Below are positions 13,880 through 37,574 of a stretch of DNA of 64,000 nucleotides, piece after piece. Positions within the stretch are counted from its first letter, which is position 1. Every line of letters starts with the position of its first letter. The notes below the pieces were generated by a model. The model was not told where the DNA came from. It ran no database searches and saw nothing but the letters and a program-made list of their open reading frames with translations. Origin of the DNA: Candidatus Saccharimonadota bacterium (GTDB lineage Bacteria; Patescibacteriota; Saccharimonadia; Saccharimonadales; SZUA-47); contig CP065013.1 in assembly GCA_016700315.1 (NCBI GenBank), positions 1,449 to 65,448 on the forward strand. Reading direction: 5' to 3'. The position numbers and the translations under genes are program-made.

Positions 13880-14116
13880 GCCGCGATGGTGGAATGGTAG
13901 CTATTTTATGCACCGCATAAAATCATAGACACAGACGGGCGAGTGGCGGAATTGGTATACGCGCACGACTCAAAATCGTGTTCCGTAAGGATTGAGGGTT
14001 CGATTCCCTCCTCGCCCACCAGTGTCTATGCGCCAGGGCGCCTCTACGCGGCCGCAAACGTCAAAATCTTGTGAGCTTTACGTCCAACGCCGGTTCAAGT
14101 CCGGCCCGCGGTACCA
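13880..14116 (+). pseudogene. Decayed tRNA-Leu(CAA)-like gene, split in its D-loop by a ~145-bp insert that contains the intact tRNA-Leu
   Basis: The 5' piece 'GCCGCGATGGTGGAATGGTAG' (13880-13900) is a type-II tRNA acceptor/D 5' half. The 3' piece (14046-14116) has D-stem 3' 'CGC', a degenerate anticodon arm 'CAAAC GTCAAAA TCTTG', T-arm 'GCCGG TTCAAGT CCGGC', and acceptor 'CCGCGGT' + ACCA. That acceptor pairs 6/7 with the 5' piece. Confidence 0.4.
13937..14021 (+). tRNA. tRNA-Leu (anticodon CAA), CCA encoded
   Basis: Cloverleaf by hand: acceptor GGGCGAG/CTCGCCC, D-arm GCG-GAATTGGTATA-CGC, anticodon arm CACGA-CTCAAAA-TCGTG, long variable arm, T-arm GAGGG-TTCGATT-CCCTC, ACCA. Confidence 0.9.
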
Positions 14117-23929: not shown

Positions 23930-24004
23930 GGTCTCATCGTCTAACGGTTAGGACACCAGGTTCTCATCCTGGCAATCCGGGTTCGATTCCCGGTGAGATC
24001 ACCA
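23930..24004 (+). tRNA. tRNA-Glu (anticodon CTC), CCA encoded
   Basis: Acceptor GGTCTCA/TGAGATC (one G-U), D-arm GTCT-AACGGTTA-GGAC, anticodon arm CCAGG-TTCTCAT-CCTGG, T-arm CCGGG-TTCGATT-CCCGG, ACCA. Confidence 0.9.
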
Positions 24005-32560: not shown

Positions 32561-33853
32561 TTAGTTCTCTTGTTTTTTGGCAACTGCTAACGCGCCGCCT
32601 GCAACCACCACGCCAGCTATTAAGCTAGGTAGGGCAGCAGTAGAGCCAGTGTTTTGAAGAACTGGGGTTTTGCTAACAGTAGTAGACGATCCAAGCACCT
32701 GTGGTGGCGTGGCTACGGCTAGTTTTGGAGCCCATTCCATCTGTGGAAATGTTGAGTCAAAACCTAAATAGCTATGCATAGCGTTGATTGCGCGCAGGCC
32801 ACTCAAACGTGCTCCATTCGTACTAAAAGTTGCAAGTTGAGGCATAACCATCTCGTCATCAGTAACTTTTTTAAAATTTCGGTAGTCGTCCTGTACTCCT
32901 GCGAAGCGGTTACCCTTTGGAGAAAAGAACGCCAGTCGATCGCTGTCATCTGTAGCGACGTAGGTAATATTTCCAGTAGCAGTGTCTACCTTGTAATAGC
33001 CTTCGACAATACTAGAAGATCTCTCCCAGTCAGCAAAACAGTATACAAGTAGTGTCGAGGAGTCTGGTGCGGCGTCTAGGTAGACTTCGTCATATTCGTC
33101 CGTAAAAGTTACCTGCTCTCGATCTGCGTAGGTCTTGCCGGACGTAATTTTGAAAATATCTGAGCCATAATCAGGAAATTCTCCTCCACTTAATGGGTGC
33201 CACTGTGAAAAATAAATTGTGCCGTCTGCCGCATAACCACCGTTTAGAAACGTTGGGTTATAAGTATTATCAGTAATGATATTGGTCACAGCACCTGTAG
33301 CGGTGTCTACCTTGTCTAGTTGTGTCCAACTGCCTTCACCCTCAAAGTAGCTGGTCGCTAGAACGTTACTAGAATCAGGAGAGTAAGATAAATCTTCCGA
33401 CTCCGCGTATTCTACATAGCCATTTTGTGAAGGTATTGTCGCTAAATCTGTTACAGAAGTTGTTGGATTACCTTCTGCGTCTATGGTTACTTTTTTTAGA
33501 TCGATCTCATACCGTGCATCTTCGTTGTCTGTGTAGTTAACCTGTCCAAAAACAACGTCGTTGGTCTGATTTGCAACGCTTGTACCGCTAGGAGCAGAGA
33601 CGGTTACGGATTCTATAGCAGCATTTTCGCTATCGACAGTCGCCACTGTGGTAGTGGTGCCCGTATCTGGATTTGTTGCAACAATTTGAGTGACACTACC
33701 TGCAGAGTCGGCTGGCACTTCAACACTCACTATAACCCCGTCTTCGCCAGGCAAAGCCGCATAGACCTTATTGGTTTTTGACATCAAAATGACGACAAAA
33801 ACAAAAAGCGGCAAGGCCGCCACTATTAAACTTCTTATTGCTGATCTTTTCAT
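32561..33853 (-). CDS. Cell-surface beta-propeller-like protein with a sortase sorting signal (LQNTG)
   Basis: Signal/TM at 'MKRSAIRSLIVAALPLFVF' (I prefer ATG 33853). The C-terminus is 'LQNTG', then a hydrophobic stretch, then 'KKQEN'. Confidence 0.6.
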   Translation of the reverse strand: MKRSAIRSLIVAALPLFVFVVILMSKTNKVYAALPGEDGVIVSVEVPADSAGSVTQIVATNPDTGTTTTVATVDSENAAIESVTVSAPSGTSVANQTNDVVFGQVNYTDNEDARYEIDLKKVTIDAEGNPTTSVTDLATIPSQNGYVEYAESEDLSYSPDSSNVLATSYFEGEGSWTQLDKVDTATGAVTNIITDNTYNPTFLNGGYAADGTIYFSQWHPLSGGEFPDYGSDIFKITSGKTYADREQVTFTDEYDEVYLDAAPDSSTLLVYCFADWERSSSIVEGYYKVDTATGNITYVATDDSDRLAFFSPKGNRFAGVQDDYRNFKKVTDDEMVMPQLATFSTNGARLSGLRAINAMHSYLGFDSTFPQMEWAPKLAVATPPQVLGSSTTVSKTPVLQNTGSTAALPSLIAGVVVAGGALAVAKKQEN

Positions 33854-34047
33854 GCACGTACTCCTGTAAATTCTTAGATTACTATTTATAGACACTACCA
33901 CCCGCATCTAAGTAGTTTTATATTCTTCTTTAAGCAACTTGTCAATAAGGAAAAAACGACATAAAGTTCGGGCTAGCCAGAGCCTAGTTAGTCACCGCTA
34001 ACATTTAAAAATATAAATTAGGTAACTAGCGTACAATGATTGTATCT

Positions 34048-35577
34048 TTAATATGCTCCACCCTGCCTTAGCTCACCCAAAAGCGGCCCTAACAGGGCTT
34101 CAAATTCTACCAGCTGCTCGCTAGTAGCAAAAGTAATGATACCCCCCAAATCGTACGCGGCTATGGTTGGCTCATTAACACCATCATTAGTTAACAAAAA
34201 CTTAGGATATGCTACTACTACATCACCATACTTGTCCTGGTCAAGACCACTATAAATTGTAAGGCTTAATGAAGCCAAGCCAGTTTTATCTAATGCCTCA
34301 TTAAAACAAAGTCGCAAGCATGCAGACTTCGGCCTGTCATTCTCTTTCACAACAACAGTTGTTTTATACTTCGCTATAACATTGAGATCAGTTTTTTTGC
34401 TGTTATCTGGGTCAGTACGTACACTCTCTTTCACCGCCATACCTTCTATCGACTGCAAAAGCTGACTGACATTCATATCCCTACCCATTAATCTACTTGT
34501 GAGGGCCACGGCTTCCCTATAGGCCATATCACCCACAACGCTGTCACTTAACATTATCAGTAGTGTATTTAGGCTAGTAATGCTTGGCCGATCGATAAGG
34601 TCGCTCACAAGCGCTAGTAAGTCGGGCTTATTAAAGTTTTCACTCGCAAATTCTTCGTCATCAGGCCTCACAACATTACAGCCAGTGCTCGTTTTGATAC
34701 TAGAAAGAAGCGGTATCACCCCATAGACCGTTGAAATTCCTACTGTGAGCGGCAATTCAGACAACACAGAAGGATCATCAACATTTACTTTACGTTTCAG
34801 CCATCTCGTTTTTTCAACAGGCATATCATACCAGAAGCACAAGTACATATCATCTTTTAAGCTAGAAATTGGCTCAACTATTCTGCGTCTCTCACCTGTA
34901 TAATTCACAACTGTAAATCTTCCTTCTCTATAAACAAGTTCATTGAATTCGGAACTATCGTTAGGATAGTAGCGATTTTCAACCTGAGCCAAAGCTGGAT
35001 CCTGTTTTTTGAGTAAGGAACGCCGTATTGCCACTGCATCTAGATTACAAGTTTCAGCCGTATCAAGGTCTATCATGGCACCAAAAGTTCCGCCATCAAG
35101 TTTATCCAGAATAGTTTTCTTAGCTTTGTCCAATTTAGTATGTGCATCTGCCGTCCTAGCTCGCAAACTCTCTGGCACGGCTTTCTCATACTCCGATAGT
35201 CGTTTTTCTGCTTCCTGTCTAGCAGCTAAAGATCTGTCGATAATTTTGCCAGGAACTTTCAGCTTATACAATCTTGCATCGCTTGGGGCTATTTGACTAT
35301 TATTTATACTGCTGATTGATTGATCTGTTTCGCCATGTTCTGCAGCCTGCAACTCACGACAAGCAGTGATTACCGCGAGCTTGCCTACCTCCTCAATAAA
35401 ACTAGCAAGATTTACATACGAGCTCACTTCAGGTTGCGTAATACCTGCTGCTAGTCTATTTGCGATCTTCCAATCACTATAATCAAAGCTTGCTTCTTCC
35501 TCTAGGCGTGGTCGCATGATTTTCTCTAACTCCGTTACAACATTTTTCTTATATCCGATTATAGCATAATTTAGCAT
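34048..35577 (-). CDS. Hypothetical protein (509 aa)
   Basis: Long uninterrupted ORF with no domain recognised. A consensus TGCTATAAT lies inside codons 4-7 (35558-35566), so the real start may be Met21 (35517). Confidence 0.55.
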   Translation of the reverse strand: MLNYAIIGYKKNVVTELEKIMRPRLEEEASFDYSDWKIANRLAAGITQPEVSSYVNLASFIEEVGKLAVITACRELQAAEHGETDQSISSINNSQIAPSDARLYKLKVPGKIIDRSLAARQEAEKRLSEYEKAVPESLRARTADAHTKLDKAKKTILDKLDGGTFGAMIDLDTAETCNLDAVAIRRSLLKKQDPALAQVENRYYPNDSSEFNELVYREGRFTVVNYTGERRRIVEPISSLKDDMYLCFWYDMPVEKTRWLKRKVNVDDPSVLSELPLTVGISTVYGVIPLLSSIKTSTGCNVVRPDDEEFASENFNKPDLLALVSDLIDRPSITSLNTLLIMLSDSVVGDMAYREAVALTSRLMGRDMNVSQLLQSIEGMAVKESVRTDPDNSKKTDLNVIAKYKTTVVVKENDRPKSACLRLCFNEALDKTGLASLSLTIYSGLDQDKYGDVVVAYPKFLLTNDGVNEPTIAAYDLGGIITFATSEQLVEFEALLGPLLGELRQGGAY

Positions 35578-36288
35578 AATGGTCTACATTATAATTATTT
35601 CAAAACACCATGGCTGGCGGCACCACGATTTTTGCTTTCTTCTTAGTGATATAAAAAGCCTACTGAGGGTGAGCCAGTCTGGTGGACTGGCGCAAGAGAA
35701 CCTTTCAGATTATAAGCTTGCTTATAGTTTGAAAGTTCTGAGGCCACAGAATGTGGCTGGGCACAAACTAAATAGAGCTTCTAGAGGGGGTGGGCACCGC
35801 TAGAAGCTCAATTTAGGGCTCAAATAGATTTTGAGCCTTAATTACACCCTTCAACCCACCTTGAAGGCCTCCGATTTAGTCGTCTCTCAACTGACTAAAA
35901 CGGCCCACTCATAGGTTTTGACGTTCTCCGTTAAACTCACACTCAAACAAAACGAGGGAGGGGAACTGGTTAAAGGGAATAGGATGATTTAGAACGCATA
36001 TTTTCCCAAAGAATAAACAAGGGAGACGGCTCGTAGAAAGTGGAGGGTAACAACTGTCTACAGCACGCTCTAAATCAATCTATTACACTTCATCTCTACT
36101 GATTGAAGCCGAAGCTTTGTCTCAGAAAAGATAAGTGTTTATTGCTGATTGTTTGCGAAAAAACAATTTTGTTCGTACAATCAGCGGTATAAGGTGCATA
36201 ACTTCCTCACAGGAGGTTACGAATTGCTATTTTAGCAAATAAGTTTCATTGTGTCAATACTTTTTAATGGATTTGTGAATTTATCAAC

Positions 36289-37143
36289 ATGAAGTCTCAA
36301 GAACTAAACATAAGTGGTCAGCTAGGGATAAAGGTGAGTAGGCTGTTCGACCAGCCAACTCATCTGTATTACCGCGGCCACCTGGATATAGAGGCACTAC
36401 TCAGCCGCCCATGCGTCGGAGTAGTTGGCACCCGTACACCTACGGCTTACGGGAAAAGCATTGTTGATAAATTAGTCAGCGAGCTGACTCGCCACAATAT
36501 CGTGATCATCAGCGGTCTAGCCTTGGGTATAGACTGCTTGGCACATCAGGCCTGTTTAAAAACAAACGGCCAAACCATTGCTGTGCTGCCGAGTGGCATA
36601 GATCGGCTTTATCCATCGACCAATGCAAGCGTAGGCAGACAAATCGAGGATAGCGGCCTACTGATTAGCGAATACAGCGGCGATGGATCACCACGACATG
36701 ACCAGTTTATCGCTCGAAACCGTATTATCGCCGCGCTAAGCGATGTTTTGGTTATCCCGGAAGCAGCCGATCGATCCGGCAGTCTCCACACAGCCAGATT
36801 TGCACTCGAGATGGGTATTCCGGTAATGGCCGTACCTGGCCCCATAACTAGCCGGCTAAGCGAGGGCTGTAATCGATTGATCGCACAAGGAGCGACGCCG
36901 ATTTTAAGCGCACAAGACATATTGCGCGAGCTAGAGATCGACAATCCAATTTCAACAGATTACGCGCCAGATACAGAAGCAGAAAGCAAAATTCTGGAAG
37001 CGCTTAATCAAGGCGCTACTGACGGCGCTGCAATCCGCCTCGCCAGCGGCCTCACCCCTGAGCTTTATCTCCAAACCCTAACAATGCTTGAGATAAAGGG
37101 AATTATTAAGGCTCTAGGAGGGGATCAGTGGGGGAGACTATAA
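36289..37143 (+). CDS. dprA: DNA processing protein DprA
   Basis: 'VGVVGTRTPTAYG', 'IISGLALGIDCLAHQA', 'SEY..G..P....F..RNRIIAALS'. Confidence 0.88.
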   Translation: MKSQELNISGQLGIKVSRLFDQPTHLYYRGHLDIEALLSRPCVGVVGTRTPTAYGKSIVDKLVSELTRHNIVIISGLALGIDCLAHQACLKTNGQTIAVLPSGIDRLYPSTNASVGRQIEDSGLLISEYSGDGSPRHDQFIARNRIIAALSDVLVIPEAADRSGSLHTARFALEMGIPVMAVPGPITSRLSEGCNRLIAQGATPILSAQDILRELEIDNPISTDYAPDTEAESKILEALNQGATDGAAIRLASGLTPELYLQTLTMLEIKGIIKALGGDQWGRL

Positions 37144-37574
37144 AGCGCTTTGAGCACATTGTGGGCGAAGCTATAGATCGAACTAGGATAAAGACTTTAG
37201 CTACTTGTATTGGTGTTAGCGGCTTCATAGCTGATATGAATCGGCAGAAAAGCTCGAAGTTTTTGGACTTCGCTGAACCCTTTAAATTTCCGGCTCATTC
37301 TAAGCACTTACTTGGAGGCATGGCTTTGGGTTACGTATTGCGACTTAGCAGCGAGGGGCTCAAAGAATTAAGCTCTGCCACTCGCAACCTCATTTCGTTT
37401 GGTGCCACGATGGCAGTCAGCGCCGCCATGGAAACTTCAATTGGAGATTTTGTTTTGAATAGACCATCTACGCATGACCCTCTGGATATCGCCTGGACAA
37501 CTACCGCTGGATTGGCAGGATTACTATGTGTCAAACCCAAAGTCGACGAAAATCCCTCTAAAATTGCGGAATAA
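37128..37574 (+). CDS. Hypothetical protein
   Basis: 148-aa ORF with a GTG start that overlaps the dprA 3' end. No domain recognised. Confidence 0.4.
   Translation: MGETIKRFEHIVGEAIDRTRIKTLATCIGVSGFIADMNRQKSSKFLDFAEPFKFPAHSKHLLGGMALGYVLRLSSEGLKELSSATRNLISFGATMAVSAAMETSIGDFVLNRPSTHDPLDIAWTTTAGLAGLLCVKPKVDENPSKIAE

Follow-up and report, generated by a model that had tools for sequence, protein, structure and literature searches.

In the 64,000-nucleotide stretch of contig CP065013.1 (assembly GCA_016700315.1, Candidatus Saccharimonadota bacterium) that was analyzed here and is called the window, positions 35770 to 36223 of the minus strand very probably constitute a stand-alone gene for a structured noncoding RNA (ncRNA) of approximately 454 nt, which belongs to a family found across Saccharibacteria (TM7) and is termed the dprA-pth RNA below. 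The boundaries, conservation, and strand of this gene, the core of its secondary structure, and its noncoding nature are demonstrated by comparative sequence evidence, and the action in trans that we infer for the RNA is graded separately. An earlier note, made from the letters of the window, had proposed the spacer from 35580 to 36288 as a candidate large structured RNA. Homologues, a conserved promoter and terminator, and covariation all agree with that proposal; the RNA lies inside the spacer but makes up only about two thirds of its 709 bp.

The RNA gene is bounded by its own promoter and terminator

The elements that delimit the gene are the following.
35770 to 36223, minus strand: structured ncRNA gene (5' end placed from the -10 element, 3' end from the terminator U-tract)
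36252 to 36257, minus strand: -35 hexamer TTGACA of the RNA gene (promoter scan)
36229 to 36237, minus strand: extended -10 element TGcTAAAAT (TGCTAAAAT) of the RNA gene (promoter scan; the form TGnTAnnnT is kept in homologues)
35770 to 35809, minus strand: intrinsic terminator with stem GAGCUUCUAG/CUAGAAGCUC, loop CGGUGCCCACCCCCU, and a U-rich tail (the stem covaries strongly)

The nearest DprA loci in GTDB genomes were those of Saccharibacteria metagenome-assembled genomes (MAGs), at 42-47% identity, and an nhmmer search with the spacer detected homologous DNA beside dprA in three loci from Saccharibacteria MAGs (L002, L004, and L005). The minus strands of these loci and the window were aligned and found to share the promoter TTGACA-17-TGCTAATAT, the blocks GCACCUUAUACC, UACCCUCCACUUU, CUAAYCCCUUUAACC, and GGUGGGUUGAAGGG, and, ahead of a U-run, a hairpin whose loop is (G/A)UGCCCACCC. 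Because the aligned copies share these elements, the conserved unit runs from promoter to terminator, that is, from 36223 to 35770 in the window. The extended -10 element noticed earlier is present, and a perfect TTGACA was found in addition 17 bp away from it; this TG-extended promoter scored 11/12 in the promoter scan. In 67 non-redundant copies (the representatives left by clustering at 92% identity, among the matches listed), the 17-bp distance between the -35 and -10 elements was invariant (67/67), and TTGACA itself was kept in 57.

Transcription of the RNA would proceed from this near-consensus sigma-70 promoter and stop at its own intrinsic terminator. The terminator hairpin is the 10-bp GAGCTTCTAG/CTAGAAGCTC stem that the earlier note had listed, and the RNA ends there. 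Its loop contains an invariant GCCCACCC (35786-35798) and is unchanged in L001, L003, and L007, three copies whose discovery did not depend on the search pattern described below. The region is not merely a 5' untranslated region of the downstream gene, as had been suspected, since the RNA is predicted to be read from the minus-strand TGCTAAAAT promoter and has its own terminator; the downstream gene also has the promoter of its own that had been predicted for it. Compared to dinucleotide shuffles, the minimum free energy (MFE) of the entire 35580-36288 region had a z score of -9.7 on the minus strand and -11.4 on the plus strand, and that of the RNA gene alone was -7.8.

Homologues are widespread in Saccharibacteria and nearly invariant between strains

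Metagenome contigs were scanned with an exact pattern consisting of TACCCTCCACTTT, a gap of 25 to 55 nt, and CCCTTTAA, and at least 120 loci were recovered. The same pattern gave no matches in viral contigs and thus no link to phages. Altogether, homologues of 242 to 454 nt were found in at least 126 Saccharibacteria contigs, and the promoter and TGCCCACC terminator loop occurred together in at least 113 copies (L002, L004, L005, the window, and 110 of the 120 metagenome loci listed). The window RNA is the longest among the matches listed with full length. Two covariance models were used to describe the structure, R1 for the 3' domain and R2 for the 5' domain. Model R1 detected the RNA beside dprA in L001, L003 (Candidatus Nanogingivalis), and L007, none of which had been selected by the pattern, and a truncated copy was present in L006. 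No copy was found with R1 in the dprA loci of Parcubacteria, Moranbacteria, Azambacteria, Peribacteria, or Firmicutes, nor in three loci labelled Saccharibacteria whose TopA proteins were 40-43% identical, as distant as those of other members of the candidate phyla radiation (CPR). Two subfamilies can be told apart by the terminator loop, which is CGGUGCCCACCCCCU in 30 representatives, the window among them, and GAUGCCCACCCUU in 34; the architecture of the variable domain differs between the two subfamilies.

The genomic position of the RNA is also conserved. A divergent dprA lies directly upstream of the RNA promoter in at least 94 loci, with topA beyond it, and a convergent pth lies downstream of the RNA in at least 68; in the window, too, the neighbors of the region encode DprA, TopA, and Pth. 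In L004 and L108, the RNA is approximately 2.7 kb from dprA. Two strains with DprA identical to that of the window, L160 (GCA_029781765.1) and L163, each differ from it by a single base within the RNA, and both of these differences fall in the lineage-specific hairpins at 36085-36185. Taken together, these sequence comparisons demonstrate that the dprA-pth RNA is under strong purifying selection and is retained in very compact genomes.

Covariation defines the core of the fold and assigns the strand

The homologous spacers showed strong compensatory change in both covariance-model alignments. In alignment A4 (3' domain, 65 rows), 97.3% of the cells were paired and 30 of 33 pairs had changed on both sides; the covariation score was 0.418, compared to 0.03-0.10 for slid partners, and none of 500 shuffles reached the observed value. 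In alignment A6 (5' domain, 67 rows), 90.5% of the cells were paired, 25 of 32 pairs had changed on both sides, and the score was 0.629 against 0.04-0.11 for slid partners, again with 0/500 shuffles reaching it. Every pair of helices P1 (8/8) and P3 (9/9) covaried in A6. The long-range helix CCCUUUAAC/GUUGAAGGG is replaced in compensatory fashion by CCCUUUGAC/GUCGAAGGG in L001 and L003 and by CCCUUUCAUC/GAUGAAAGGG in L007, all three of them copies found without the pattern. G-U pairs were frequent (38 rows had U-G at one pair, and 34 had G-U at another), and at one pairing of block d, G-U alternates with A-U (38 versus 20 sequences); the frequent G-U pairs establish that the sense of the RNA is the minus strand of the window. 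Model R1 matched the window at E = 8e-6, and with model R2 the window fell below reporting at E <= 0.001. The MFE fold of the window copy reproduces the model helices.

The proposed RNA would begin with the 5' hairpin P1, followed by a conserved C-rich linker and a long helix, P3, that bears a hairpin with the loop CUACCCUCC. In its 3' part, the long-range helix CCCUUUAACC/GGUUGAAGGG would enclose a domain of variable size and be followed by the terminator hairpin with its invariant GCCCACCC loop. The individual elements of the window copy, from 5' to 3', are listed below.
36197 to 36221, minus strand: P1, 5'-terminal hairpin (MFE folds; compensatory change in homologues)
36186 to 36197, minus strand: block a, conserved linker GCACCUUAUACC (consensus GCACCUUAUACCCCC; alignments)
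36085 to 36185, minus strand: two lineage-specific hairpins that replace the short CUAAC-loop-GUUAG element of other copies, GCUGAUUGU/ACAAUCAGC at 36144-36185 and a UUCG-capped one at 36085-36138
36066 to 36084, minus strand: 5' strand of P3 with its extension (AAUAG-AU-UGAUUUAGAGCG), pairing with 35978-35996 (inverted repeat and MFE)
36037 to 36050, minus strand: block c, UUACCCUCCACUUU, a hairpin presenting the C-rich loop CUACCCUCC, which resembles the anti-Shine-Dalgarno sequence
35978 to 35996, minus strand: 3' strand of P3 with its extension, CGUUCUAAAUCAUCCUAUU (inverted repeat, MFE, and covariation)
35968 to 35977, minus strand: block d, CCCUUUAACC, 5' strand of the long-range helix, pairing with 35847-35860
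35861 to 35967, minus strand: variable domain inside the d-e helix (58-166 nt among homologues), including the UUUAGUC/GACUAAA hairpin
35847 to 35860, minus strand: block e, GGUGGGUUGAAGGG, 3' strand of the long-range helix, carrying GGUGGG as a candidate pseudoknot partner of the terminator loop
35817 to 35837, minus strand: optional extra hairpin GGCUCAAA/UUUGAGCC before the terminator (in part of the family, e.g., L043)

The window copy carries every block of the family, namely the promoter, P1, block a, P3 with the CUACCCUCC loop, the d-e helix, and the terminator with the GCCCACCC loop. It is atypical in lacking the CUAAC element, in place of which two hairpins are inserted, and in having an extra hairpin before the terminator. 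Its P3 extension shows a private double compensation, AAUAG/CUAUU versus the consensus GUUAG/CUAAY, and a pairing of GUUAG with the downstream CUAAY is favored for this reason. The stems of the variable domain covary within the subgroup of the window, as read from the sequences, and helix P4 covaries in the model alignment. Block c is identical in the dprA-anchored L002, L004, and L005, whose detection preceded any pattern search, and its core CCUC(C) persists in the divergent L001, L003, and L007. No conserved pairing partner of block a was found in the alignments.

At least seven consecutive stem-loops had been described earlier between 35673 and 35899, together with further stems up to 36190. 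All seven are present, including the GGCTCAAA/TTTGAGCC and TTTAGTC/GACTAAA stems, but three of them (35673-35760) lie downstream of the terminator and are conserved nowhere. The GCTGATTGT/ACAATCAGC stem was recovered in a repeat search, and the C(UUCG)G loop on the minus strand was found at 36105-36116. The CCTTCAA/TTGAAGG hairpin exists but competes with the better-supported long-range helix CCCUUUAACC/GGUUGAAGGG; as a conserved pairing (CUUCA/UGAAG) it was rejected, apparent covariation in L040 and L047 being contradicted by L041, L044, L126, and L128. Two other pairings were also discarded. A local CUAAC/GUUAG hairpin ("P2") is not an essential core helix, since the window and L043 lack CUAAC, and a pairing of block a with sequence 3' of block e, present in the window MFE fold, is not kept in the other subfamily.

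A loop motif, UG(C/U/A)GAG, was noticed in the loop of P1, where it reads CUGCGAG (the window has CUGUGAG, 36205-36212, minus strand), and again, in many loci, in a hairpin loop of the variable domain, where it reads UUGCGAGA or UUACGAGA (the window has UUGAGAGA, 35884-35892, minus strand). These repeated loops could be a site of protein binding or of tertiary contact.

Conserved C-rich loops suggest action in trans

The most conserved bases of the RNA are pyrimidine- and C-rich, and some of these stretches are predicted to be unpaired: the linker UACCCCC, the hairpin loop CUACCCUCC, and the terminator loop GCCCACCC. The CCCUCC loop has no conserved partner inside the RNA, because 22 of the 67 copies contain no GGAG anywhere, and for the same reason an internal kissing interaction of this loop with a GGAG loop was rejected. 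GGUGGG, the complement of CCCACC, or GGGUGG was present in 64 of the 67 copies, just 5' of block e or in P4. We propose that the dprA-pth RNA would act in trans, with the C-rich loops as its functional surface. These invariant unpaired loops would bind a G-rich partner, which may be a Shine-Dalgarno-like GGAGG, another G-rich RNA, or a protein, and the terminator loop may instead, or also, pair with the near-universal GGUGGG as a pseudoknot.

Two forms of this action, which do not exclude one another, appear about equally likely. The RNA may be the scaffold of a housekeeping-type ribonucleoprotein (RNP), a tentative suggestion that fits the conservation throughout the class, the recurrence of UGYGAG loops, and a constant core whose periphery can expand. 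It may, just as tentatively and by analogy, be a regulator that works as RNAIII or RsaE do, by pairing with Shine-Dalgarno-like G-rich sites. In Staphylococcus aureus RNAIII and the small RNAs RsaE/RoxS, UCCC-like loop motifs pair with Shine-Dalgarno regions. Like these RNAs, the dprA-pth RNA would be independently transcribed and has hairpin loops, including the terminator loop, with conserved C-rich motifs predicted to be unpaired; its own promoter and terminator accompany these loops, as expected of a trans-acting RNA of this kind, and like RNAIII, which is about 500 nt long, it is a multi-hairpin RNA. It differs from them in having no homology to either, in encoding no peptide (RNAIII encodes hld), and in having no target found in the window. 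It also differs in being class-wide, with long-range helices and a near-invariant core, which are more typical of RNP or housekeeping RNAs. The overall reading, which we hold with slightly less than even confidence, is that of a previously undescribed class-wide RNA, either a housekeeping-grade RNP component or a global regulator, whose anti-Shine-Dalgarno-like loops would act on translation initiation or another core process.

Several points weigh against these conclusions. Blocks c and d look invariant partly through an ascertainment artifact, because the metagenome pattern required both blocks, and blocks a and c are degenerate in the divergent L001 and L003. Alignments derived from covariance models lean toward the structure of the model. 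In addition, the helix 1 cells of A4 come partly from partial, mis-assigned matches, so the long-range helix rests on the compensatory changes in the pattern-independent copies. Both the proposed pseudoknot and any pairing of the loops with targets would involve invariant bases and so lie beyond the reach of covariation. L125 lacks GGUGGG, and within the 64-kb window no extended complement of the loops was found except the antisense strand of the gene itself. Transcription of the gene is predicted solely from the conservation of its promoter and terminator.

Alternative explanations

We considered whether the conserved element could instead act in cis, as a 5' leader or riboswitch of the downstream gene or as a regulator of dprA by promoter occlusion or antisense pairing, and judge this improbable. 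The RNA and dprA are adjacent in at least 94 loci, and the RNA promoter stands back to back with the start of dprA, its -35 element only 31 nt from the dprA ATG (36289). Since dprA has no Shine-Dalgarno sequence and the RNA -35 element is so near, the dprA promoter has to overlap that of the RNA or lie inside the RNA gene, where a weak promoter-like TTGCGA-17-TACAAT is found on the plus strand (36153-36181), or else the dprA mRNA is leaderless. A similarly strong divergent promoter is also found beside dprA in other CPR. A leader, however, would need a gene to lead into, and the identity of the co-oriented neighbor is not conserved; the downstream gene is usually the convergent pth, so the RNA has nothing to lead into, and the downstream gene in the window has its own promoter and is a lineage-specific insertion. 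The terminator is always present, the distance to dprA in L004 and L108 is approximately 2.7 kb, and a fold of 240-450 nt that is conserved, covaries, and keeps its loops invariant is more than promoter occlusion would need. The RNA could have a cis role at the dprA promoter, but such a role would leave the fold unexplained. Conservation at the level of DNA (a site for protein binding or for replication/recombination, placed between dprA and pth) or of a hidden small protein gene, with the hairpins incidental, is scarcely credible. It would be consistent with the dprA-pth synteny and with the mechanical open reading frames (ORFs) of 26-89 aa that occur in every copy, and the region is not strictly "ORF-free" as first described, a mechanical 74-aa ORF overlapping it at 35579-35803 on the plus strand. 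This ORF lies mostly in the nonconserved part, however, and had no match in NCBIfam, which was scanned, as Pfam was not. No ORF position is conserved, indels between the invariant blocks are spread evenly over the three frame phases, and the compensatory changes keep pairing, also at G-U pairs, which would turn into A-C on the opposite strand; the promoter and terminator also frame the conserved block precisely.

A highly diverged housekeeping RNA missed by the Rfam models, mainly RNase P RNA or else signal recognition particle (SRP) RNA, tmRNA, or 6S RNA, is a very unlikely identity. The size range, strong promoter, and constant core with variable periphery are alike, and weak local resemblance was seen by eye, with no tool, to what we take to be the Escherichia coli M1 RNA sequence (GGGUUGAAGGGUG versus GGGUGAAAGGGUG in M1, and CCCUCCAC versus ACUCCACCC). 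CPR RNase P RNAs are known to escape standard thresholds, 10 of 35 circular CPR genomes having no detectable RNase P RNA in this way (Lui et al. 2021, PMC8172020), although they were recoverable with RF00010 at lowered thresholds (PMC8172020). Because of this reported divergence, the signatures of RNase P were checked directly, and the P4 signature GGAAAGUCC (GGAAAGTCC as DNA) was found in 0/67 copies, ACAGAA in 1/67, and GGCUUA in 2/67. The 5' and 3' ends, which need to pair in P1 of RNase P RNA and in the closing stem of 6S RNA, do not pair with each other in 66 of 67 copies and pair in the MFE fold of one. No match to RF00010, RF00011, SRP, tmRNA, or 6S models was obtained even at E <= 10. 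ARAGORN found only two tRNAs in the window, the GGTTCRA T-loop of tmRNA was present in 2/67 copies and an ACCA end in 0/67, and the domain IV motif of SRP RNA (GGAAG.AGC, with a GNAR loop) in 0/67, with no Rfam match. For 6S RNA, neither RF00013 nor RF01685 matched, and the two ends form separate local hairpins, P1 and the terminator. The dprA-pth RNA therefore resembles class A RNase P RNA in size, strong promoter, and variable peripheral helices, in a lineage where such RNAs can escape the models (PMC8172020), but it differs in lacking P4, the CR-I/CR-V signatures, and P1 end pairing, in ending with an intrinsic terminator that has a conserved loop, and in having no RF00010 match at relaxed thresholds.

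Comparison with known RNA families

Searches against Rfam 15 at E <= 10 returned nothing for the window region, L047, or L049 (inputs of 331-951 nt, for which scores of about 14 bits were reportable), and the OLE, GOLLD, ROOL, HEARO, and raiA motif models were likewise silent for all three. The earlier statement that the region matched no family by eye, with these families, RNase P, tmRNA, 6S, and SRP as the ones to be searched, thus agrees with the model searches. At gathering score, the whole 64-kb window yielded only two tRNAs, both outside the region, and 139 kb of related contigs yielded no match, which is uninformative as to a separate rnpB. These tRNAs, tRNA-Leu(CAA) at 13937-14021 and tRNA-Glu(CTC) at 23930-24004, both on the plus strand, are the sole Rfam and ARAGORN matches in the window. 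The literature searched, including the main bacterial ncRNA discovery papers, does not mention the RNA; the sole TM7 motif that these papers report is lysM-TM7, a small cis element. An unpublished description, or one under a different name, is possible, and would escape both the literature and the Rfam searches. Within the reach of Rfam 15 and of the literature that can be searched, the dprA-pth RNA is a new RNA family.

Among its nearest likenesses are the large or ornate orphan ncRNAs of bacteria known from comparative genomics (OLE, the raiA motif, ROOL, GOLLD, and HEARO). Like them, it is a stand-alone gene of several hundred nucleotides with a multi-helix fold backed by covariation, nucleotides that are highly conserved yet unpaired, and variable domains around a constant core, and it is restricted to a single clade, with no function evident from its context. 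Unlike them, it occurs in Saccharibacteria/CPR, carries other conserved motifs, matches none of their models, and has no link to phages or insertion sequences (0 viral contig matches and no IscB/TnpB-like neighbor). As a further likeness, the raiA motif RNAs also tend to adjoin a competence gene (comFC).

The strain-variable island and neighboring genes

Features that lie outside the conserved RNA are the following.
35558 to 35586, minus strand: promoter of the downstream gene, TAGACC-17-TGcTATAAT (promoter scan; likely start codon at 35517)
35650 to 35762, minus strand: three hairpins past the terminator, closed by GCC/GGC and followed by U5 (island edge)

The divergent gene downstream had been described as 509 aa long; its start is probably the ATG at 35517, giving 489 aa, because the -10 element of its promoter (35558-35566) falls inside the longest ORF. 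This gene and an adjacent 448-aa gene (together 32561-35577, minus strand) lie at a place where the RNA and pth adjoin in many other genomes. Neither has a homologue in any of the 123 RNA-bearing loci searched, and the two are therefore an insertion between the RNA and pth. The three hairpins past the terminator, which include the GCCAGTC/GACTGGC stem (35673-35679/35685-35691) and the long hairpin at 35697-35738 that had been pointed out earlier, also have no homologue in these 123 loci and had a fold z score of -2.7. In the identical-DprA strains L160 and L163, approximately 20 differences from the window were counted in the 86 nt from 35579 to 35664, and there were many more in the 509-aa gene, which is present in these strains in a divergent version of 516-517 aa. 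Since the RNA is near-identical and its flank divergent among these strains, a strain-variable island begins just past the terminator. Both strains also carry an insertion of approximately 172 nt at 35721, the apex of the long palindromic hairpin, and this segment could be a small mobile element or could have been deleted in the window strain.

On the other side of the RNA, a 148-aa ORF (37128-37574, plus strand) sits before topA and has a 16-nt overlap with the end of dprA; gene calls for it exist in each of the four contigs of the species that have the identical DprA (L160-L163). The 509-aa, 448-aa, and 148-aa proteins had no NCBIfam or PADLOC match, and their longest-ORF forms had no Pfam match. 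In a Parcubacteria locus (L018, 3630-3700, minus strand) and a Moranbacteria locus (L011, 3520-3715, minus strand), a near-identical consensus promoter, TTGACAAA...TTTTTTGCTATAAT, is divergent beside dprA. In L018, a terminator hairpin follows it after approximately 20 nt, giving a mini-transcript, and in L011 it leads into a 172-aa ORF. The equivalent spacers of other CPR were thus rejected as copies of the RNA, since one has a protein gene and the other only a promoter followed by a terminator.

Implications for Saccharibacteria

Saccharibacteria are ultra-small epibionts with reduced genomes (under about 1 Mb) and hardly any noncoding DNA, and, apart from their rRNA and tRNA and a small number of cis motifs, almost nothing is to our knowledge known of their RNA biology. 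An RNA of 240-450 nt that has a consensus promoter, occupies one syntenic site throughout the clade, and is near-invariant between strains is very likely to be important to these cells. With the dprA-pth RNA, the short list of orphan large ncRNAs of bacteria would gain a CPR-specific member. Saccharibacteria are genetically tractable, with natural transformation and transposon sequencing available (PMC10633639), and the invariant loops of the RNA are obvious targets for mutagenesis in these organisms.

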